From positions 1,536,001 through 1,600,000 of the forward strand of contig OY820579.1 in assembly GCA_963681965.1 (NCBI GenBank): a stretch of 64,000 bases of DNA, in the 5' to 3' direction. Position numbers and translations under genes: made by a program. Below the pieces are notes generated by a model. That model was not told where the DNA came from. It was given only the letters and a program-made list of their open reading frames with translations, and did not search any database. This document shows, piece after piece, positions 5,413-62,270 of this stretch. The stretch comes from a bacterium. GTDB lineage: Bacteria > Electryoneota > JAOADG01. The stretch's first letter is position 1. Every line of letters begins with the position of its first letter.

Positions 5413-7299
5413 TTACTTCAACAGGACGATCTTCTGTGTCTTCGCAAACGCACCCGCCTGCAATTGCACAAAATAGGTTCCACTGGCTAATCGCGAACCA
5501 TCGAGCCGCACGCGATACGATCCGGCACGCTGCTCACGCTGCACCAGCGTCGAGACTTCACGTCCGGTGAGGTCGTAGAGACGAAGATCGACGCGAGACA
5601 AGGACGGGAGGGTGTAGGAAAGAGTGGTGGTGGCGTTGAAGGGGTTCGGATAATTCTTAACTAGAAGTGTGGAATTTGGGTGAAGTGAAGACTCCTGAAC
5701 CGAAGTAGTATCGATAGTGAATTGGGTGATGAAGCAGTCATATTGACCATTACTCGATGTATCAAAACATGATGATGAAATTGGGAAATTAGCACTTGAT
5801 GTTAAGCCAATGGCGCATATTTTACTGATTGATATGCAACAAATATCCTCTCCGCCATCGTCGCTCGATCCTCCAAGGAATGTACTATAAAAATGATTGG
5901 GATTATCTAATGAAATACGAACGACAAAACAGTCATTTGAACCTCCACTATAAGACTGTTGCAACGCGTTCATTGTTGTCGGAAAATTTGTGCTAGAAGT
6001 TGTTCCAGTAACAATAATTTCATAAGAATTACGAGCAACTGCCATACCAATATCGTTATCAGTGCCACCAAAAAATGAACTATATAATAGATGAGACAAA
6101 TTATTATTTATAACAGTAACAAAACAATCATAATTTCCATTTTGGGTTGTATCGAATGCATTTTCAGTATGGGGATAATCACTACTTGCAGTAACACCGA
6201 CAGCGATAATGATACTATCCTGCGACAATGCTATATCATGAATTCTATCCCCACCGGAACCACCGATATAAGTACTCTTCATTAAAATGCTACCATCGTG
6301 ACTCACTCGTGATATGAAGGCATCTACTCCTCCATGAAAAGATGAATCGAATGCATCGCTTGAGCACGGAAAATCAGAGCTGTTTGTGTAACCAGCGAAG
6401 ACTATCGATTGATCTAACCGAAGTTGAATTATCGAATTACTTACTTCATCATATGAGCCACCGAAATATGTACTGAATAACAAAGCAGAACGATTCATAG
6501 ATAACTTTGTGATGATACAATCGTAACCACCATTCGTTATCGGATTATAGGTGCCGGTAGTAGTAGGATAATCAAGACTTAATGTGCTTCCACATATGCT
6601 ACAGCTACTATCCGCTTCATTCGCGATAATAGAATATCCTTCATCTACGTACGAACCTCCGATGAAACTACTGTAAACAAGCTGCGTTCCGGTAGGATTT
6701 ATTTTTAGTACAAAGCAATCATCAGTTCGATATCCGGAATGCGAACGGCAATAAGCATTCGTTGTCGTAGGAAAGTTGTCACTTTCAGTGGAACCGGTCA
6801 CATAGATACAATTCTGTGAATCAATTGTCAATCCATTGCTGAAATCATTGAATACACCACCGAGATAAGTACTGAATTGCAGGAGTGACAAGGTTGAATC
6901 CAACTCGGAAATGATACAGTCCGATAATCCGGCATTCATCCGTTCGATCGTTCCCGGAGTAGTAGGATAGTCAAATCCACTGGATGAACCTGCAATGACG
7001 ACCGATCCCGTACTGGTAACTCCAAGTGCTAATGCTTCGTCGTTACCCGTACCACCCACAAACGTCGAATAGATCTGTGGATCGATCCGCAGCGTCTGCG
7101 ATTTATCATACCCATTCGGTAAATCGATTGCGAAGACATTCTCAGCCACGATTGTGAATTGTGCTGTGACATCGTTTCCATGAGTGCCATTCGTAGTTGT
7201 TTGATATGCTCCCGGAATCGACATCCGGAGTTCGCCGAGGGAGGTGGGAAGCGAGAGTTCATTCGATAATCGGAGGTCGGTGCTTCCAATCCTTCGCAC
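5413..7299 (-). CDS. C-terminal intact part: SBBP beta-propeller repeats plus sorting domain (fragment of the 5413-9511 gene)
   Basis: About seven (Y/F)ST(Y/F)xGGxxxD...G.T.S.(D/N)(F/Y)PTT repeats; YPNPFNATT tail. Confidence 0.8.
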   Translation of the reverse strand: MRRIGSTDLRLSNELSLPTSLGELRMSIPGAYQTTTNGTHGNDVTAQFTIVAENVFAIDLPNGYDKSQTLRIDPQIYSTFVGGTGNDEALALGVTSTGSVVIAGSSSGFDYPTTPGTIERMNAGLSDCIISELDSTLSLLQFSTYLGGVFNDFSNGLTIDSQNCIYVTGSTESDNFPTTTNAYCRSHSGYRTDDCFVLKINPTGTQLVYSSFIGGSYVDEGYSIIANEADSSCSICGSTLSLDYPTTTGTYNPITNGGYDCIITKLSMNRSALLFSTYFGGSYDEVSNSIIQLRLDQSIVFAGYTNSSDFPCSSDAFDSSFHGGVDAFISRVSHDGSILMKSTYIGGSGGDRIHDIALSQDSIIIAVGVTASSDYPHTENAFDTTQNGNYDCFVTVINNNLSHLLYSSFFGGTDNDIGMAVARNSYEIIVTGTTSSTNFPTTMNALQQSYSGGSNDCFVVRISLDNPNHFYSTFLGGSSDDGGEDICCISISKICAIGLTSSANFPISSSCFDTSSNGQYDCFITQFTIDTTSVQESSLHPNSTLLVKNYPNPFNATTTLSYTLPSLSRVDLRLYDLTGREVSTLVQREQRAGSYRVRLDGSRLASGTYFVQLQAGAFAKTQKIVLLK

Positions 7300-52791: not shown

Positions 52792-53141
52792 GATTCCCTC
52801 TTCGTGAGTTACTCATTATACGCATAGGTTCCAAAAAAAGTCGACACTGTTTCCATGAGGTACAAAGTATCGAGTATTCAAAGGTGCTGGAAGCGGAGTG
52901 GTAAAGTCGACGGTAATTTGCGAATAGGGAGAGCGCAACCATCGACGAATAGTTAGTGTGAGTGGATCGAAAGAAAGTTGCTCTTACTAGTGAGATGAGA
53001 GGAATTTCCAATTCGTTTAATCTCGCTAAACGAAAATTGACGCGATCTCCCAAAAAAACAAATTGCACATTCGGTACTGGAAAATCGCGTCAAAAATTTA
53101 TTGAAAGAACAGTCTAGTATGATTCGAACGAGAAATAGAAA

Positions 53142-53474
53142 TTAAAAAACCGGTAGTAACTCTCGTTTAATTGCACGGGACCGACCGATGGTTTTGGAGA
53201 TTGCTCTGGCGGCACGATCGATTGCCAGATCGACTGATTTCAACAGTTCGCTGCTGATGTTTTCAACAAAAACATTGCTGTTGGATTTTAATCGTACTTC
53301 CATCCGACAACTTTTGTCTTCACCCCCCCGGGTACCGTTGAAATTGATCAGTTGGATTGTAACTCGGAGTATGTGTCCGGCATATTTCTTTAGTTTGTTC
53401 TGGATCATCGTTTCGATCCGAATTCGGGTCGAATCATCCATATTGATGTGCAAGTTACGAATGTAGATCTGCAT
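53142..53474 (-). CDS. HPF/RaiA family ribosome-associated protein
   Basis: MQI..RNL...D....RIE...KL......I.RV.I.L...NG.RGG.DK.C..EV...VDLAIDRA; GAGGAG RBS. Confidence 0.82.
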   Translation of the reverse strand: MQIYIRNLHINMDDSTRIRIETMIQNKLKKYAGHILRVTIQLINFNGTRGGEDKSCRMEVRLKSNSNVFVENISSELLKSVDLAIDRAARAISKTIGRSRAIKRELLPVF

Positions 53475-53510
53475 ATCTTTCTCCTCTGAAAATCGCGCTA
53501 GTTTTGTTTG

Positions 53511-53535
53511 AACGCAGATAACAACACTAGGTTCC
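53511..53535 (-). promoter_or_regulatory. Possible ECF-sigma promoter for the hpf-like gene
   Basis: Minus strand GGAAC-N17-GTT, about 37 nt upstream of the start. Confidence 0.4.
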
Positions 53536-54201
53536 CAAGAAAATTTTGAACTCTACGGAAACAGAAAACCGCTTTCAATGATTAGATGTTATCGTCGATA
53601 AAATCGTTGCGTTTGTTGAATAACTCTTTCTAAAGGTGTGAACTGCAACACATGATTTCATCGGTTGTATCTTGTCAATTCATTAGTTCGATTTTGATCC
53701 TGATGAATATTTGTACCTATCCATATACCAGTTCTTCGCCGCGTAAAGCGAAAACATCAGGTTACATTCGATGGTCTTGAATACTGAAAATTCTCTAAAA
53801 AAATTCAATTAGTGCTGATCGGCTTGATTCGAAAGCTTTCGCTCGATGTGAATGATCGAGCTGTAAGTTTTTTCAATGAACTCGCTTAAATGGAATTAAA
53901 ACCGATAGATAGAGTGAATCAGTCACTCGTCACTAAAAGTACGGAAACCAGCATGCACTTTTGCTAGGATTATTGAAAATTTGTATTTTTTTTCTCATTC
54001 TAATTAAGTGTATGATTGGTATGAATTAAGATTGAATTTCGAAATTATGTATAGAATAAGGCAATGTGTTGCTATTCACATAATTTGCTCATAGATCGAA
54101 AAACGATTTTTATTTTTGCTTGTTTACAAATTGAGACACTTGTCAAAAATCGTTACATTATGCCGTCTAGTATTAGTTTGTTCAATCCTACGGAGATCAT
54201 T

Positions 54202-56388
54202 ATGAAGCAAAATGTTATCGTTGGCTTGGTGATGCTTCTTACAGTAGTATTGGCCGGATTAGGTTTTGCCTATCCGCGCACAGTACTAATGGAAGACTAC
54301 ACCAACTACTCTTGACCTTACTGCGCGACGGGTCATAATTGGCTCGTTCCATACCTTGCGGGGCAAGGTAGTGTCCAATACATCCAATATCACGAAAATT
54401 ATCCGGGTCCCAATGATCCGTGGTATCTCGCCAATACTCCTCAAGCCGATTCATTGCGTTCCACTTATGGCGTAACCGGTTACCCGACTTATGCGATTGA
54501 TGGTACGACGATTGTCGGATTCGGTCTCTCATCGACTCCCAACACGATCACAACCCGAGTTAATACCCGGTTGGCGATTGCGTCACCAGTGTGGTTGAAG
54601 GTATCGATGGATCCGACCACGAACGATACGATTATCGTGACAGTAAAGGCTGTGGCGAGTTCAGCGATTACGAACAGCTCGCTGAAGATTTACTTGACCG
54701 AAACCCTGGAAACATGGGCAACCCCGGCACCGAATGGTGTGAACCGTTGGGAATTCCCGTTCGTATCGGCTTCACCCTCGGTAGCCGGAATTGCATTTAC
54801 CCATACCGGTACTACGACCGATACACTGACCTTTACCGCCCGGTTTGCACCACGAAGAACTGGTACGGAACCTTATAACAAGGATAGTTGCAGCGTGATT
54901 GCATTCGTGCAGAATAATACTTCACACGAAGTATACCAGTCTGCCCGATGCCACACCATCGTGTCACCGACCAATAACCGAACCTATTTGATCGGTACTG
55001 CACTCCCGATTATCTGGAATCCATACTATACTACCGACATCATGAACATTCTGATCAATCGGAGTTATCCGTCTGGCACTTGGGACACCATCGCTGCCAA
55101 TATTCCGAACTCAGGATATTTCGATTGGACTGCTACCGGACCGATCACCTACAACGCGCGTCTACTGGTGAAATCGACAACGCATCCGCTCAATGTCGAT
55201 ACTTCGATCATCACGATAACCAGTAATACTACTTTGCAAGTGTCACCGAATCCTATTTCGATGACTGTCGCTGCTGGCGATACAGTGCGTACTAACGTAC
55301 TGATCTCGAACAATGGGAGCGCGCCGTTTACCGGTACGCTTGCCGCGACTACTGGATCACTAGGTTATACTTCACTCTCTTCATCACAAGCGTATGGTCC
55401 TGAAGTAGGCTGGTACGACACGGAAGCCGGGGATCCGGGAGCGCACGGCGACGATTCATTATCGGGACCTTATGTGCTGCCATTCAGATTCCCGTTCTAC
55501 GGTACGAATTATACCAACGTCTATATGTGCACCAACGGATATCTCTGCTTCTCAACGGCAGTTGGAGCGTTGTATACAAATGCATCGCTTCCATCCGGTT
55601 ATCCGATGATTTGCCCGTACTGGGACGACTTTGTCGTTAGCGGTACGGCTGTTACCCAAGTCTATGTAGATGCCGATAGTGGTTATGCCATTTTCTCTTG
55701 GCAGAATGTGCCGCGATACGTGACAAGTGGTTCAGGTGGTAACTTCAATTTTGAAGCGATCCTTCGTTCCGACGGTACAGTTGAATTCCAGTATGATGTG
55801 TTAACTGGAACCCTCAACTCGGCTACAATCGGTATTTCGAATGGTACCATTGCCACGCAGGTGATTTACAATCAGACTGCCACGCAGTACTTCGCATACA
55901 AATTCACTCCCGGTGTGATTTGGTCGTCACCAAGTACTACGGTGTTGAGCATTCCGGTCGGTCAGAGCCAAACGATCAGCACACTGTTTGACGCGCGGCG
56001 GTTGACTGCCGGTCAGACATTGAATGGTACATGGGTGATCACAGGTAACATGGCAGCTTCGATTACCGTGCCAGTTTCTATTATCACTACCGCGACTGGC
56101 GTTGCTGAAAACGGAGCAATGGTTCATCGTTACAATCTTGAAAATGCATATCCCAATCCGTTTAACCCGACAACATCGATTCGCTACGAGATTCCGCGTG
56201 CCGATCGAGTTGTGCTGAAACTATACGACAGTAACGGTCGATTGGTCGAAACACTGTTTGATGGAACCAGCATTGCGGGGAAACATACTCAAATGATCGA
56301 TGCAACCAAGCTTGCATCGGGTATGTATTTTGTCAAGATGAATTCTGGCAATTTTAACGCTACTAAGAAAATTATGTTAGTGAAGTAA
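54202..56388 (+). CDS. Secreted Omp28-like thioredoxin-fold protein with UxxC (probable selenocysteine at TGA 54313-54315), Ig/nidogen-like domains and a C-terminal T9SS-like sorting domain; 728 aa with read-through
   Basis: GGAGA RBS, ATG 54202, signal peptide, RTVLMEDYTNYS-TGA-PYC, then the same frame continues YH..YPGPNDPWY...YGVTGYPT..IDG into the 54454-56388 ORF, ending YPNPFNP...SGMYFV...KKIMLVK. Confidence 0.85.
54327..54370 (+). promoter_or_regulatory. Candidate SECIS-like hairpin(s) downstream of the in-frame TGA
   Basis: GACGGGUCA-UAAU-UGGCUCGUU (54327-54348), starting after an 11-nt spacer from the UGA; UACCUUGC-GGG-GCAAGGUA (54352-54370). Confidence 0.55.
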
Positions 56389-56405: not shown

Positions 56406-56441
56406 AAAAAAACGGAACCTCAGTGAGGTTCCGTTTTTTTT
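56406..56441. terminator. Bidirectional rho-independent terminator
   Basis: A7-CGGAACCTC-AGT-GAGGTTCCG-T8. Confidence 0.88.
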
Positions 56442-56665: not shown

Positions 56666-57328
56666 TCAGCACCCTTCCTTTTTCTTCTTGCCGCCACTTG
56701 CTGCTGGTGCGGATGAACCACCACCACTTGGCATCGGCTTCGGAGGTTCCATTTTCGGAGTTGTGGCTGGATTGCTTCCGGTTTGTGGAGTTCCACCGAA
56801 GAACTTACTCACTTCGCTCATTTTAGTGAATTCTGATTGTTGTTGTGTCGTTGCATTCACCGCAATCTTTGGAAATAAGATACGGTCATTCCACTCTTCC
56901 AGACCTCCGAAAAGAATATAGACCGCTTTATATCCTTTCGACCGCAGTAGGAACCATGCTTGTGCCGAATGGATCCCCCCTTCGGAATAAAGTACGAGCT
57001 TCTCAGTATGCGAGAAATTAGCGTCGGTAATTTTCGCCGTCGGAATATTCTCGGAAGTCGGAATGTGATAGTCACGGTATTCTTGTTCCGATCGCAGATC
57101 GATCAATCGGTAGTCTGCACTCCTCTTCATTATCCAATCGGTGAGTTCGGTTACATCGATATGATCGACTTTGTTGTCTACTATCATTGCCAGTTCTTTT
57201 GCATCGATTGTTACCGAAGTACCGTGATAAGGATTTCCCGCAAATACCGCCAATAATCCCAAAGTAAAAGCTAATAGCGCGAGTTTACGGTTGCGTGAAA
57301 GCGATTTCCAGAAAGTCATTTTGACCAT
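56666..57328 (-). CDS. Membrane-anchored/periplasmic rhodanese-like protein with a C-terminal KKKKEGC tail
   Basis: LIDLRS..EY..YHIP, LVLYS, S.QAW..L...GY..VY.L.GGL.EW; Pro/Gly linker then EGC. Confidence 0.82.
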   Translation of the reverse strand: MVKMTFWKSLSRNRKLALLAFTLGLLAVFAGNPYHGTSVTIDAKELAMIVDNKVDHIDVTELTDWIMKRSADYRLIDLRSEQEYRDYHIPTSENIPTAKITDANFSHTEKLVLYSEGGIHSAQAWFLLRSKGYKAVYILFGGLEEWNDRILFPKIAVNATTQQQSEFTKMSEVSKFFGGTPQTGSNPATTPKMEPPKPMPSGGGSSAPAASGGKKKKEGC

Positions 57329-57346
57329 CCTTGTAGCTATCGAAGA

Positions 57347-57931
57347 TTATTTCGCAAATTTATTTTCGACCCATTCCGCACCGGCAAAACCACCAATCGC
57401 CATGAGGACTACAGCGAATACTAGTACTCCGTAAGGGATATTGAGTAGCTGCGATAAGGTGATTTGTCCCATCGAAGTCGAATTGTAGAACGATTCCAAC
57501 ATCGGGAACATTTCACCGAAAACGAATATTCCGAAGAATATTCCCAGCAGATAAATCATCCCATCGATTTTTCCCGTTGCTGCTGCAACGCATGATGTAC
57601 CTGGACAATATCCACCAATCACGAATCCAATACCGAGTATCAATCCACCGATCGTCTGAGGAAGGATGTATGTAGGTGTCAAATACACTTGCGATAAATC
57701 CATGAAGCCGATCCACGAGAGCCAGAAAATGCCCAGCATCGCAGTAATGATTGCGGTAAACATTACTTTGAATACGGTCAAGTCGGTAAAGTAGAATTGA
57801 GCAGCTAACTTACGACCACTGCCGAATCCGGCGCGTTCCAGAAAGAAACCGAAACCAATTCCGATAGCAAATGCGAGAATTAAACTAACTTCATCGTTGA
57901 ACATTCCGAATTTGTAAAAGGGTGCGTTCAT
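57347..57931 (-). CDS. YeeE/YedE family sulfur-compound transporter
   Basis: IGIGFGFFLE, VFKVMFTAI, GGLILGIGF..GGYCPGT; ATGA overlap with the upstream gene. Confidence 0.88.
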   Translation of the reverse strand: MNAPFYKFGMFNDEVSLILAFAIGIGFGFFLERAGFGSGRKLAAQFYFTDLTVFKVMFTAIITAMLGIFWLSWIGFMDLSQVYLTPTYILPQTIGGLILGIGFVIGGYCPGTSCVAAATGKIDGMIYLLGIFFGIFVFGEMFPMLESFYNSTSMGQITLSQLLNIPYGVLVFAVVLMAIGGFAGAEWVENKFAK

Positions 57932-58494
57932 TTCCACTGTCTCCTCATGAAGTATGCCATCGCATAAGCACCGGTAAATACCATCATCATAAACGACCAG
58001 CTCCCGACATTCAGTACCGATCCGCCGGTGAGTGCTTGTCCGCTAGTACATCCCCGTGCCAACTTGGCTCCGAATCCCATCAGCGAACCGCCGATGAACG
58101 CAAAAATCAATCGTCCGGCAATCGAGATATGCGGTCCTTTCTCGACTCCTTTCCGTACCCGATTGGCTAATACACCCGAGAAAAATCCTCCGACAAACAC
58201 GCCCAACACCTCGAATACCAACCAATCTTTGAATGGGCTTTTCGATCCGTCACCGAGGTACTCGGAATAGAATCCATTACCGGAAGCATGAGCAGGCGCT
58301 AGTTTACTGATCGTTACCGAGGTGGCGGTCGAGAATGCACCGGAGGCTCCCAAGCCGCGACCCATGATGACATAGGAAAGCAATAGCACTAACCCCAAAC
58401 CGATTCCGGCGAGATAAGGATTCCAATACGGTTGAGCGACTCGTTCGACAGTCGTCTTAATAGTACTGGTAGTAGTTGTCGTTGATGAAGCCAT
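57928..58494 (-). CDS. YeeE/YedE family sulfur-compound transporter
   Basis: WNPYLAG..LG, GLGAS, GG.LMGFGAKLARGCTSGQAL.G. Confidence 0.88.
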   Translation of the reverse strand: MASSTTTTTSTIKTTVERVAQPYWNPYLAGIGLGLVLLLSYVIMGRGLGASGAFSTATSVTISKLAPAHASGNGFYSEYLGDGSKSPFKDWLVFEVLGVFVGGFFSGVLANRVRKGVEKGPHISIAGRLIFAFIGGSLMGFGAKLARGCTSGQALTGGSVLNVGSWSFMMMVFTGAYAMAYFMRRQWK

Positions 58495-58536
58495 ATCATT
58501 GCTCCCGCGATGTATCGCGATAGATGATTCCTGATA

Positions 58537-59511
58537 TTAATGAAATAAATTTACATGATTGTGTATTGTGTTGATCCAGCTACTCTGCTGCCCGGCAGAT
58601 ACAATAATGAATCGTAAAAATAGACCGCCTAATATTACCGTGACCGGTGCAATTGCTGTATGATTCACTTTGTGATTGACTGCAAGCAACTGAATAATGA
58701 GTGGAATGACAATACCTATTCCCACCACGAGCACCCAAAATGGTGCAGCAAACGAACCATTCAACAATAAATGTGCTGCGGCTTGATGAGCCTGTGTCGA
58801 ACTGAGCAATCCTATCAGATAAAGACCCAATACAATCAATTCGAAAATTAAAAAACCATTGTCGGCTTTCGCCAGTAACTCCCGTTCGGATTTCAAACTG
58901 GCAATCATGTGTACAAGTGCTGCTGCCGACGAAAGTCCGGATACGAGGAACAACACCCAGAGCATGGCGCTGTTCCATAACGGGCGCGCTCCGAACGCAC
59001 TTAATAAAATCCCGGTATAAATACCCAATGCTGCCCCGATCAGCATATTTCCGACTGCCAGCCACCGGATCGAAGCCGGAGAAGATAGTTTCGCTGAAAG
59101 CGTATCGAGAATTGGAAACAGTTTGCGAATTGATTTTGGAAAATGGTCATGGACGTTCATGAGTACTGTTCCAATCAGAATTGGATACACCAGTAGCAGA
59201 ATCCATGCACCCCACGACATCGGCGATGTGGGTTGAAAGGTGGTATACAGTTGCCAGACATACCATTTGTGTTCGAGATCCAGAAACAATGCAAACATAC
59301 CGACACTTATCAACGCCAGTGATAGTAATGGTAAATGAAAACAGCTTGTCTTGCTTGCCTTGTCGCGACCGCTGAGTAAAAAATATCCGGAGATGATCAT
59401 AATTCCGGCAACCAATCCACCTAGAAATAGGTAGACCGGTATCTGCCAATCCCAGATCCCAAGCATCGGATCGATATGAGGATTATGACGGGTGAATGTC
59501 AATTCGTGCAT
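58537..59511 (-). CDS. psrC: NrfD/PsrC membrane anchor subunit
   Basis: W.WQIPVYLFLGGLVAG, LDL, SPMSWGAW.L, YTGILL....RPLWN, GG..LR. Confidence 0.88.
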   Translation of the reverse strand: MHELTFTRHNPHIDPMLGIWDWQIPVYLFLGGLVAGIMIISGYFLLSGRDKASKTSCFHLPLLSLALISVGMFALFLDLEHKWYVWQLYTTFQPTSPMSWGAWILLLVYPILIGTVLMNVHDHFPKSIRKLFPILDTLSAKLSSPASIRWLAVGNMLIGAALGIYTGILLSAFGARPLWNSAMLWVLFLVSGLSSAAALVHMIASLKSERELLAKADNGFLIFELIVLGLYLIGLLSSTQAHQAAAHLLLNGSFAAPFWVLVVGIGIVIPLIIQLLAVNHKVNHTAIAPVTVILGGLFLRFIIVSAGQQSSWINTIHNHVNLFH

Positions 59512-59521
59512 CGATTTCTCC

Positions 59522-60061
59522 TCACATCAGGTAGAATATTTGTGGTTGCGTTCCCGCTTCCGGAAGCACCGTGTGGTTCTTATGTGCCGCGATCAAACGG
59601 CTAACTTCGCTATGCGGATCCTCGAAATCTCCGAACGTCATACAATGTGTCGGACAAACCGAAACACACGCAGGATCTTTCGCATCCTCGATCCGGTGCA
59701 CACAGAACGTACATTTATCGGCATACCCGTCGGGGTGAATAAACCGGGCATCGTATGGACAAGCTGCCATACATGCTTTACAACCGATACACTGTTCATG
59801 TGTGACCAAAACGATGCCGCCACGTTCGTGGACATGACTCGCGCCAGTCGGACAGCAATACACACACGGAGGATTGTCGCAGTGATTGCAGCGCTCACTC
59901 CGTAATTCCATCGATAACGTCGGAAATTTTCCAGTAACATCTTGTGTCAGCCAATCCCGATCGTATCCTTCGGGAACCCGGTTTTCGGTTTTGCAGGCTG
60001 CCACGCAATCCATACAACTGACGCATTTACGGGTGTCGATCACCATTCCCAGACGGCTCAT
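59522..60061 (-). CDS. psrB: 4x[4Fe-4S] electron transfer subunit (PsrB/NrfC)
   Basis: CVSCMDCVAAC, CNHCDNPPCV.CCP, CIGCKACMAACPY, KCTFC...PACVSVCP. Confidence 0.92.
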   Translation of the reverse strand: MSRLGMVIDTRKCVSCMDCVAACKTENRVPEGYDRDWLTQDVTGKFPTLSMELRSERCNHCDNPPCVYCCPTGASHVHERGGIVLVTHEQCIGCKACMAACPYDARFIHPDGYADKCTFCVHRIEDAKDPACVSVCPTHCMTFGDFEDPHSEVSRLIAAHKNHTVLPEAGTQPQIFYLM

Positions 60062-60062
60062 C

Positions 60063-62270
60063 TTATACCCCCGATTCGATCGTTACAAAGTTGACGTTCA
60101 TCCCGGTTCCACCCATCAGTGGGTCAGTCGCGTACCGTGTAATCAATTGCGAATCGCTGGCTCCCTTTCCGAATGCATGACGCAATCGTCTGGAAGTGTG
60201 TCCGAATCCGTGAACCATGTACACGCAGTCCGGTCGAATCCGCTCGGTTGCTTTCACGCGAATCTTATTTGACAGCACACCATCTTGATTCTTCAGTTTC
60301 ACGTAATCGCCGCTTTTCAAATCCAATCGATTCGCTACATCATTATTGATCCAGATCTCATTTTCCGGCATCATATCGGAGAGAATTCGATTCGTTTGCG
60401 TCCGACCAAACGAGTGCATCGGCGCACGTCCATACAATAATCGGAATGAACCCGGTGGTGGTTCGACTGGGCGTTTATATTTCGGAACCGGATCGAATCC
60501 CGCTTGTTGCAACTGAACGGAATAGAACTCGATCTTTCCGGATGGTGTGTCGAATATCGGTGGAACCCCTTCTTCGTAATAATTCGGTTGCTTAGCACCG
60601 CGGATAATTCCGCTTTCTTTCAATGCCGCAAGCGAATAACCACCTTTTTTCAGACGGGAATCGAGATATTCCTCGATATCCTGCCACGGGAAATAATTAC
60701 CCAACCCCAATCGATTTGCCAACTGCTTGGCGATCCACCAATTCGGTTTTTGGTCGTCAGGCGACTTTACTACTGGTTGTCGTAGGGCGATAAATGGATC
60801 GCGGAACCATTCCACATTCAGATCGTCGTACCGTTCGAGATAGACCGATTCTGGCAATACGACATCGGCCCAACCTGCGATCTCACTCGGAACCACGTCG
60901 ATCACGACCAGCAAATCAAGTTGCTTGATCGCTTCGATCGTTGCTTTCTCATTGGGTAATGCACTCATCAAATTGGTGGCATAAACCATCCACCCCTTGA
61001 TCGGATAAGGTTTGCCGCTGATTGTCGCTTCGCGAATTCCAGTCGTTATCGATTCGTGTGCAAAGGGGTATTTGTTTCCCGGATTGTCAACTTTTGCCTT
61101 TTCTGAATGAGGGTAGGGAGGGTAGGGATAACCGGGCAATTCCATACTTACCGGTGTAAAGAAGCTCCCTTTGCGTCCCCAGCTTCCGAGCAGTGCATTG
61201 AGCAGTGCAATTGCCCGACTCCGTTGCGCATCGTCGCCGTACCATGTCGCATGTCGACCCGGATGAACTAGTGTTGCCGGCTTGTGTTGCGCCATTGCCC
61301 GCGCGGTTTCACGAATCGTTTCCGGATCGATATTTGTTTCGGGGTATGCCCATTCTGGCGTGTAAGGGGCAATTTCCGCAGCGAAATTCTCAAAGCCGAA
61401 ACCGTACTTCTTCACATATTCTTCATCGTACAGTTTCTCACGCACTATTGTGTTCATCCAAGCCAATAGCAGTGCGAGATCGGTTCCCGGTTTGATGGGA
61501 AGATACCACTTCGCCTTGCTCGCTGCGATAGAAAAACGGGGATCGGCAACAATGATTGTCGCGCCATTATCGATTGCCTCGGCGAATTCTTGTACCTGAC
61601 TATTGTGCATATTTTCGCCGAGATGAGAACCGAGCAGGACAATGCACTTTGAATATTTGATATCGGTGCGTTCCGGTGATCCGACATCTTCGCCGAATGT
61701 CAAGCGGAATCCGACATCCCGAGGTCCCCGGCACTGAGCAAACGATGGAGCGGTGATATTGGGTGAACCGTACGCCTTGATGAGGTGTTTTAGAAAATTT
61801 CCACCGATACCGTGACTGAATAGCGCAACCGATTCTGGTCCAAAGCTAGACTTGATCGTTTTCATTTTATCGGCGATGAAGTTCAGTGCTTCATCCCAAG
61901 TTACTTCCACCCACTCTTCGTTTCCGCGAACACTTTTCCGCAATAGCGGTGCTTTCAATCGGTCTGGATCGCTTTGCGCACCGACTCCGCCAGTACCACG
62001 AGGACATAGCCTTCCATTACTCAGTGGATCTAAAGGATTACCTTCCAGTTTCCACAATTTTCCATTTTCTACGGATGCAATGGCACCACATTTCCAGAAA
62101 CAGATATCGCAGAATGTGGGAATTCGCTGAATGCGGTCGGAAGGTTTTCCTTCAAGGGCGAAGGCTAGATCACCGAAAAGGCGGGTGGGCTGCATTACTT
62201 TTGCTGCAGCAGCTACCCCGATCGCGGTCGATGAAATTTGTAGGAATCTTCGTCGAGAAATTGAATCCAT
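60063..62270 (-). CDS. psrA: Tat-exported molybdopterin oxidoreductase, polysulfide/thiosulfate reductase (PsrA/PhsA) clade
   Basis: SRRRFLQ Tat motif; CDICFWKC...LCPRG; FAQCRGPR Mo-ligand Cys; ADVVLPE..YLER; HGFG. Confidence 0.85.
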   Translation of the reverse strand: MDSISRRRFLQISSTAIGVAAAAKVMQPTRLFGDLAFALEGKPSDRIQRIPTFCDICFWKCGAIASVENGKLWKLEGNPLDPLSNGRLCPRGTGGVGAQSDPDRLKAPLLRKSVRGNEEWVEVTWDEALNFIADKMKTIKSSFGPESVALFSHGIGGNFLKHLIKAYGSPNITAPSFAQCRGPRDVGFRLTFGEDVGSPERTDIKYSKCIVLLGSHLGENMHNSQVQEFAEAIDNGATIIVADPRFSIAASKAKWYLPIKPGTDLALLLAWMNTIVREKLYDEEYVKKYGFGFENFAAEIAPYTPEWAYPETNIDPETIRETARAMAQHKPATLVHPGRHATWYGDDAQRSRAIALLNALLGSWGRKGSFFTPVSMELPGYPYPPYPHSEKAKVDNPGNKYPFAHESITTGIREATISGKPYPIKGWMVYATNLMSALPNEKATIEAIKQLDLLVVIDVVPSEIAGWADVVLPESVYLERYDDLNVEWFRDPFIALRQPVVKSPDDQKPNWWIAKQLANRLGLGNYFPWQDIEEYLDSRLKKGGYSLAALKESGIIRGAKQPNYYEEGVPPIFDTPSGKIEFYSVQLQQAGFDPVPKYKRPVEPPPGSFRLLYGRAPMHSFGRTQTNRILSDMMPENEIWINNDVANRLDLKSGDYVKLKNQDGVLSNKIRVKATERIRPDCVYMVHGFGHTSRRLRHAFGKGASDSQLITRYATDPLMGGTGMNVNFVTIESGV

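Follow-up and report, generated by a model that had tools for sequence, protein, structure and literature searches.

A predicted selenocysteine-containing, HBP35-like surface protein with a type IX secretion tail in a member of the Electryoneota

Does the single in-frame TGA in a 728-codon frame of an Electryoneota genome end translation, or does it specify selenocysteine (Sec, U)? The frame lies in a 64,000-nucleotide stretch of contig OY820579.1 (assembly GCA_963681965.1), hereafter the window, and its only TGA is codon 38, in the context EDYTNYS-U-PYC. We are highly confident that this UGA is decoded as Sec, because the genome has a full Sec system, the UGA aligns with the first cysteine (Cys) of a CxxC motif, and the UGA copies of the gene share a covarying stem-loop. 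As for the explanation as a whole, we also think it very probable that the gene encodes a genuine, exported, Sec-containing protein of 728 residues resembling HBP35, a surface protein of Porphyromonas gingivalis. That the protein performs redox catalysis at the cell surface is suggested by this resemblance and is our favored, though distinctly less secure, view of its role.

The list of open reading frames (ORFs) splits the gene in two, one part ending at 54315 and the other beginning at 54454. An earlier reading of the DNA from its letters (the sequence-only reading) had joined these same-frame parts across the one TGA into a 728-codon gene with a ribosome-binding site, and its read-through protein, MKQNVIVGLVMLLTVVLAGLGFA|YPRTVLMEDYTNYS-U-PYCATGHNW..., with ...YPNPFN... 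in the tail, matches the translation exactly. A Shine-Dalgarno-like site precedes the ATG (Table 1), and a close paralog in the same genome (paralog B, below) carries the identical GGAGATCATTATG there. By eye, the N terminus resembles a signal peptide, its basic n-region being followed by a hydrophobic core and by small residues at positions -3/-1, and residues 2-20 are modeled as a helix in the AlphaFold2 (AF2) model of the protein head. Past the stop codon, a terminator-like hairpin, CGGAACCU-CAGUG-AGGUUCCG, followed by a U-run can be made out by eye; a terminator scan of the window does not list the hairpin and T-run at 56413-56441.

The genome, one contig of 4.24 Mb that is 99.9% complete, contains the full set of genes for which a search had been proposed (selA, selB, selD and tRNA-Sec). 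The tRNA-Sec reaches 63.8 bits (gathering score 47) and is called SeC, with anticodon TCA, by ARAGORN; with selA at 481 bits, selB at 364 and selD at 337, four of four components are above curated cut-offs. A single in-frame TGA also breaks the selD gene, at the Sec/Cys site known for it (...SDCAG-U-AAKIGP). Of the genome's 1199 stop-to-stop frames that are 400 codons or longer, 314 end in TGA, and a global reassignment of this codon is therefore excluded. Across a sample of 41 genomes, comprising the window's own and 40 relatives of the phylum, selA is above the cut-off in 39; G004 has no selA and only the Cys form of the gene, and G001 has a selA fragment at a contig end. Because 39 of the 41 genomes carry selA, its co-occurrence with the gene family cannot discriminate Sec decoding. 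The closest named homologs of selA come from unclassified 'bacterium' MAGs (61% identity), followed by candidate division KSB1 and Calditrichaeota (about 45%). Two full-length selA genes above the cut-off occur in many genomes (G006, G007, G011, G012, G016, G017, G021, G025, G029, G033 and G037).

The 41 genomes yielded 87 homologous copies, found in 39 of them, and at the column of U38 the comparison proposed by the sequence-only reading gives 33 TGA and 49 Cys codons, with conservation on both sides; two copies have Ser, one has Ala and two end at contig edges. (A script count of 34 TGA includes one locus twice, and the Cys codons are 32 TGC and 16 TGT plus locus L027.) The TGA copies are spread over 16 of the 41 genomes. 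All TGA and Cys copies read [U/C]xxC, with VLxExFT conserved upstream, which bears out the claim that the TGA sits where a CxxC motif has its first Cys. An alignment of 83 rows (L038, L075, L089 and L105 were left out for short coverage) shows no variation at C41, P95 and G196, and position 38 is almost always U or C. That this TGA codon, with conserved flanks, recurs in two paralogs of the window's own genome and in 30 copies from 15 other genomes is far more than chance would produce.

Within the window's own genome, tblastn found three further copies of the same 730-750-residue architecture. Paralogs B (75% identical) and C (43% identical) have TGA at the same codon, and paralog D (37% identical) has Ser at the U position, reading TSPEC; the other relatives with neither Sec nor Cys are L098, with Ser, and L101, with Ala. 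A genome-wide scan for E.[FYWHL].....*..C, suggested earlier as a way to find more TGA genes, returned 26 matches, 23 of them in stop-riddled frames. The remaining three, in a credible protein context, are the three TGA-bearing paralogs of the genome, and nothing else credible came of the scan. A quick maximum-likelihood tree of the 83 rows implies at least 10 switches between Sec and Cys, six of which well-supported branches make unavoidable; with the labels shuffled, about 26 switches are needed, and 0 of 500 shuffles were as low. On this tree the window gene and paralog B are sisters, as are paralogs C (U) and D (S). The head of paralog D falls among Omp28 clusters of Ignavibacteriota and Bacteroidota in a protein atlas. 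Tandem family members are common (for example G001:C83:4020-4781 and 6486-7250; G005:C14:56177-58507; G028:C2:1555464-1560671), and one contig of G001 has a Cys copy next to a Sec copy.

The RNA downstream of the UGA also distinguishes the two forms of the gene. Hairpin 1 lies at +14..+35, with its apical loop 23-26 nt past the U of the UGA. Bacterial Sec insertion sequences (SECIS) have their apical loop approximately 16-37 nt from the UGA, and hairpin 1 falls within this range. The hairpin begins about 13-16 nt after the UGA in every TGA copy, and in the genome's selD gene the hairpin loop is about as far from the UGA. For the segment +9..+39, the mean minimum free energy (MFE) is -11.2 kcal/mol over 34 TGA rows, of which one is a duplicate, versus -5.5 over 48 Cys rows (Mann-Whitney p = 2e-10, for rows that are relatives and not independent), and hairpin 1 is much weaker in Cys copies. 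Its stem letters vary by clade, yet pairing is kept. In a subgroup of 10 sequences, 96.3% of cells are paired and 6 of 8 pairs are compensatory, compared with 27-51% pairing when the partner is slid; in two other subgroups, one of which is the window's clade, the paired fractions are 84.0% and 86.6%, compared with 25-55%.

A second hairpin follows at +40..+56. Among the 33 TGA copies, 70.6% of its cells are paired, versus 53.2% in shuffles and 31-46% with a slid partner, and all seven of its pairs show compensatory double changes. The pairing is kept although the encoded residues differ (LAGQG vs LQNVG), and this hairpin too is weaker in Cys copies (-4.1, versus -7.0 in TGA copies). An Rfam search of the window at gathering thresholds returned 0 matches.

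These observations bear on three other ways of accounting for the TGA. Gene callers read it as a stop, which would leave a 37-residue peptide and a re-initiated body of approximately 590-640 residues without a signal peptide. Public collections do hold a 593-aa product, an internal TTG at 54454 opens a 644-codon ORF, and a sigma-70-like match overlaps the TGA, although such matches are common. We nevertheless find this very improbable: in-frame conservation is strong for C41, H64, D72 and N78, which follow the TGA and precede the internal starts, and likewise for the signal peptide and VLxExFT upstream; the Cys homologs run continuous; and a type IX secretion system (T9SS) cargo without a signal peptide could not leave the cell. 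A single in-frame stop near the 5' end might mark a pseudogene, a nonsense mutation or a sequencing error, a possibility we regard as negligible, given that the same TGA codon stands in 33 copies from 16 genomes, including three paralogs of the window's own genome that are 43-75% identical, and that the covarying hairpin is confined to the TGA copies. Pseudogene and sequencing error were ruled out on the strength of this conservation. That a near-cognate Trp or Cys tRNA, or a TGA-reassigned code, lets the UGA be read with no Sec involved has hardly any more chance of being correct, and nothing specific speaks for it; TGA closes long frames throughout the genome, Sec machinery and a SECIS-like hairpin are present, and the position aligns to Cys, not to Trp or Gly. 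Decoding of codon 38 as Sec thus remains our strongly preferred interpretation.

What kind of protein would carry this residue? The AF2 model of the head, built from the 83-row alignment, is confident (predicted local distance difference test (pLDDT) 91.0, predicted TM-score (pTM) 0.87). It has a strand at 28-34, U38 at the N terminus of helix 39-53, P95 just before strand 96-99, and a sandwich at 130-250. HBP35 (5y1a) is the best match both by Foldseek (E 4.4e-13, TMq 0.72) and in a profile search against the PDB (E 3.1e-8), and the next structural matches are 2axo and then the Omp28 domain 2r2c, the latter on the sandwich. The proposal of an Omp28/thioredoxin head is well supported by this confident fold, the HBP35 match and the Omp28 domain on the sandwich. 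The Pfam Omp28 model (PF11551) matches residues 83-252 with 31.1 bits, under its gathering threshold (GA) of 34.9, and this threshold is passed by 10 of 25 complete relatives (the domain scan of homologs covered 25 of the 32 non-window loci, leaving out seven incomplete ones). Judged by these scores, the clade is part of the wider Omp28 family, with the window copy borderline.

Between head and tail, the full-length AF2 model, made from a 7-row alignment, is all-beta at low confidence (pLDDT 64.8). The modules proposed for this region as immunoglobulin (Ig)-like are all-beta in this low-confidence model and possibly Ig-like, and family scans gave no match at residues ~260-430. The proposed nidogen-like domain was recovered as a NIDO match above threshold, covering profile positions 2-53 of 186 only, and paralog D scores 30.0 bits with the same model. 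The NIDO all-beta module probably runs on to residue ~590. In most homologs from other clades than the window's (e.g. L025 and L027-L051), the place of the NIDO-like middle is taken by a module of approximately 350 residues with conserved NGDGR.EPGE and LLVDDD, which has no Pfam match at E <= 1e-4.

The C terminus was correctly recognized from the sequence as a T9SS-type sorting tail: it matches the Pfam sorting-domain model with 48.5 bits, and the tail is present in 24 of the 25 complete homologs. T9SS machinery is encoded in the genome: a single frame of 2221 codons matches SprA with a summed 700 bits, PorU reaches 619.5 bits, and adjoining PorU is a PorV-like gene (209 bits, cut-off 250). 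Dozens of further frames in the genome end in tail-like sequence.

HBP35 is the most informative relative of the head. It is described as a T9SS-exported surface protein with thioredoxin activity, and the recombinant protein reduces insulin disulfides in a manner dependent on C48 and C51 and binds hemin; HBP35 is also needed for growth when hemin is scarce (PMC2907840). It shares with the window protein a two-domain head, a redox dyad in the same place, a T9SS C-terminal domain and, as judged by eye in the window protein, a signal peptide. HBP35 differs in having CxxC, in its length of 344 residues and in having neither NIDO-like nor extra beta modules, and the two proteins are approximately 15% identical. 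Omp28 (PF11551, 2r2c, NF033782) resembles the sandwich half (2r2c, E 2e-5, TMt 0.71-0.79), whereas the window protein stays below threshold with the Omp28 models, by the Pfam scores given above and by 32 vs 150 for NF033782, and by eye its signal peptide is of the ordinary and not the lipoprotein type.

Put together, these features suggest the following course of events. SelB with Sec-tRNA(Sec) would bind hairpin 1 and insert Sec, and hairpin 2 would probably help, for example by pausing the ribosome or by stabilizing the element. The N-terminal signal peptide would take the protein across the inner membrane, and the T9SS would then carry it over the outer membrane by means of the C-terminal sorting domain, probably leaving it anchored at the surface. 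By likeness to HBP35, the head would be a thiol/selenol-disulfide oxidoreductase with its center at U38-x-x-C41 and a cis-Pro loop at P95. The beta-sandwich, the NIDO-like module and the other beta modules may serve as spacers or as substrate-binding parts. A selenol is more nucleophilic than a thiol, is ionized at neutral pH and resists irreversible over-oxidation. Such properties would suit an extracellular redox center that has no dedicated reductant at hand.

The chief competing explanation accepts a real Sec-containing surface protein and holds that its head mainly binds a ligand, such as heme, a metal or metalloid, or a sulfur or selenium species, with the selenol as a ligand. The hemin binding of HBP35 and its importance when hemin is scarce (PMC2907840) fit this explanation, as do paralog D and one relative, in which the fold is retained with Ser in place of U, and another relative in which it is retained with Ala; the convergent neighboring genes also handle sulfur (rhodanese, YeeE/YedE-like and Psr-like). 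Those neighbors, however, are on the opposite strand and past the terminator, and the [U/C]xxC motif, the cis-Pro P95 and the placement at a helix N terminus are hallmarks of catalytic thioredoxin folds and are kept in 82 of 85 scorable copies. We therefore judge ligand binding as the main function to be rather unlikely, while taking it more seriously than any other alternative, and continue to favor an exported redox protein.

Several points nonetheless weigh against the proposal of a decoded, exported and redox-active protein. Sec incorporation, export and activity are computational predictions, and so is the selenol exposed at the surface. The downstream fold of the window copy itself is unremarkable (z = -1.74; 12 of 200 shuffles fold as well), and in the register of the clade consensus, one of the seven pairs in its hairpin 1 is a G.G mismatch. 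Its apical loop, UAAU, is without G, and a conserved G in the loop is the usual feature of bacterial SECIS elements according to the legend of Figure 7 in PMC2398784. An important caveat to the pairing and MFE statistics is that they compare related, not independent, sequences. The window copy falls just short of the Pfam Omp28 threshold, and the PorV-like gene is below its own cut-off. Paralog D keeps the architecture with Ser, which suggests that at least some family members work without the redox pair.

How new is such a protein? A hypothetical protein family, GOS_C, was reported in 2008 and is an Omp28-related UxxC selenoprotein (PMC2398784; Table 1 of PMC13188914); the report describes 74 Sec and 312 Cys sequences with a thioredoxin (Trx)-like fold, UxxC and a SECIS-like element, and lists no assigned function (PMC2398784). 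The NCBIfam model NF045500, 'Omp28-related selenoprotein', corresponds to GOS_C as described there. The sequence-only reading had accordingly overrated the novelty of the gene, as Omp28-related UxxC selenoproteins were already in the catalogs. As far as the published descriptions go, GOS_C/NF045500 and the window family have in common the Trx-like fold, UxxC, the joint occurrence of Sec and Cys forms and a SECIS-like hairpin, and 59 of the 83 clade heads match NF045500 at E <= 1e-5, the best at 5.7e-17. The window protein itself scores 18 bits with this model against a cut-off of 200, with approximately positions 30-276 of 377 aligned, and among 79 genomes of the phylum every copy falls short of that cut-off (best 76.9 bits). 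By sequence, the window's clade appears to be an unrecognized sister branch of GOS_C/NF045500, outside the curated model.

Other exported thioredoxin-fold selenoproteins, as summarized in Table 1 of PMC13188914 (DsbA-like, DsbG-like and thiol:disulfide interchange proteins), share UxxC and work outside the cytoplasm. Those proteins are small and periplasmic, whereas the window protein would be a large, multi-domain T9SS cargo. Our literature search found no paper linking Omp28 or HBP35 to Sec, or selenoproteins to T9SS, and the window family is not covered in the available part of a 2022 preprint on new selenoprotein families.

Public annotation reflects the interrupted frame. The predicted truncation by gene callers has indeed occurred: the public product has 593 of the 728 residues, and paralog B is listed with 622 aa. 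Word-index protein searches found only the truncated protein itself, paralog B and tail-only matches, and a related-locus search with the single window protein as query found no relative. Searching 1.84 billion sequences with the head profile gave 18,988 cluster representatives with E <= 0.001, of which 2,372 had E <= 1e-30. Eight of the best 150 matches start (at their residue 2-3) at profile positions 34-42, just after the dyad, which is consistent with their being further truncated Sec forms in public data.

Table 1. Positions of the features discussed, in window coordinates except for the last three rows, which are given in coordinates of the genome contig
Feature	Position	Strand	Remarks
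Whole predicted selenoprotein gene	54202..56388	+	728 codons + TAA; predicted Sec at codon 38
Shine-Dalgarno-like GGAG	54192..54195	+	6 nt 5' of ATG
Signal peptide, residues 1-23	54202..54270	+	By eye; likely cleavage after GFA
HBP35/Omp28-like head, residues 24-252	54271..54957	+	Thioredoxin fold ~24-125, beta-sandwich ~126-252
UGA, predicted Sec codon U38	54313..54315	+	First residue of UxxC redox motif U38-P-Y-C41
SECIS-like hairpin 1, GACGGGUCA-UAAU-UGGCUCGUU	54327..54348	+	Fold and covariation in three subgroups
Hairpin 2, ACCUUGC-GGG-GCAAGGU	54353..54369	+	Conserved; covariation
All-beta middle modules, residues ~260-430	54979..55491	+	Possibly Ig-like; AF2 mean pLDDT 64.8
NIDO (nidogen-like) match, residues 439-492	55516..55677	+	PF06119, 28.4 bits vs GA 25
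T9SS type A C-terminal sorting domain, residues 650-725	56149..56376	+	PF18962, 48.5 bits; TIGR04183, 48.4, cut-off 23
Terminator-like hairpin + U-run	56413..56441	+	3' of stop; by eye
selD, predicted selenoprotein gene (L018)	C1:4177383-4178309	-	In-frame TGA, then long hairpin
Paralog D (L108)	C1:201696-203939	+	Full architecture kept; SPEC replaces UxxC
Paralog B (L106) / tRNA-Sec (L001)	C1:2412438-2413208 / C1:2414712-2414803	- / -	Paralog B ~1.5 kb downstream of tRNA

Downstream of the gene, the minus strand of the window holds a convergent sulfur-handling cluster at 56666-62270, with a rhodanese gene, a pair of half-size Sulf_transp genes of the YeeE/YedE type, and genes for the NrfD, 4Fe-4S and molybdopterin subunits of an enzyme resembling polysulfide/thiosulfate reductase. 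YeeE/YedE proteins are among the entries of the selenoprotein table in PMC13188914. The 1.4 kb upstream (52792-54201) contain one convincing ORF, of the ribosome hibernation/S30AE family (53142-53474, minus strand), and gave no Rfam match. Elsewhere in the genome, the interval from tRNA-Sec to paralog B contains an SDR gene and a glyoxalase-family gene, and just past the tRNA-Sec gene is an M23 peptidase with a T9SS tail.

The type of selenoprotein described here is already known, having been catalogued since 2008, and the clade is a homologous branch outside the curated model; its chemistry and decoding are otherwise standard. Its members are easily missed: of the 87 phylum copies, 33 would be split or shortened by ordinary gene callers, the public 593-aa entry is without signal peptide and active site, and the curated NCBI model of the nearest known family, NF045500, misses the clade. 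It is possible, if somewhat doubtful, that the phylum has expanded a set of T9SS-secreted surface selenoproteins, with as many as four Sec copies in a genome and recurrent switching between Sec and Cys, that use two-hairpin recoding and act on extracellular disulfides, polysulfide or metal(loid)s; the T9SS would then have its first selenoprotein cargo, which might form a selenium sink at the surface. The finding ties the GOS_C/Omp28-related selenoproteins to HBP35, a protein that has been studied, and to the T9SS, and this link yields a concrete proposal for their function, that of a surface thiol/selenol oxidoreductase. Sec, Cys and Ser paralogs within one genome provide a natural series on what selenium adds to such a protein.

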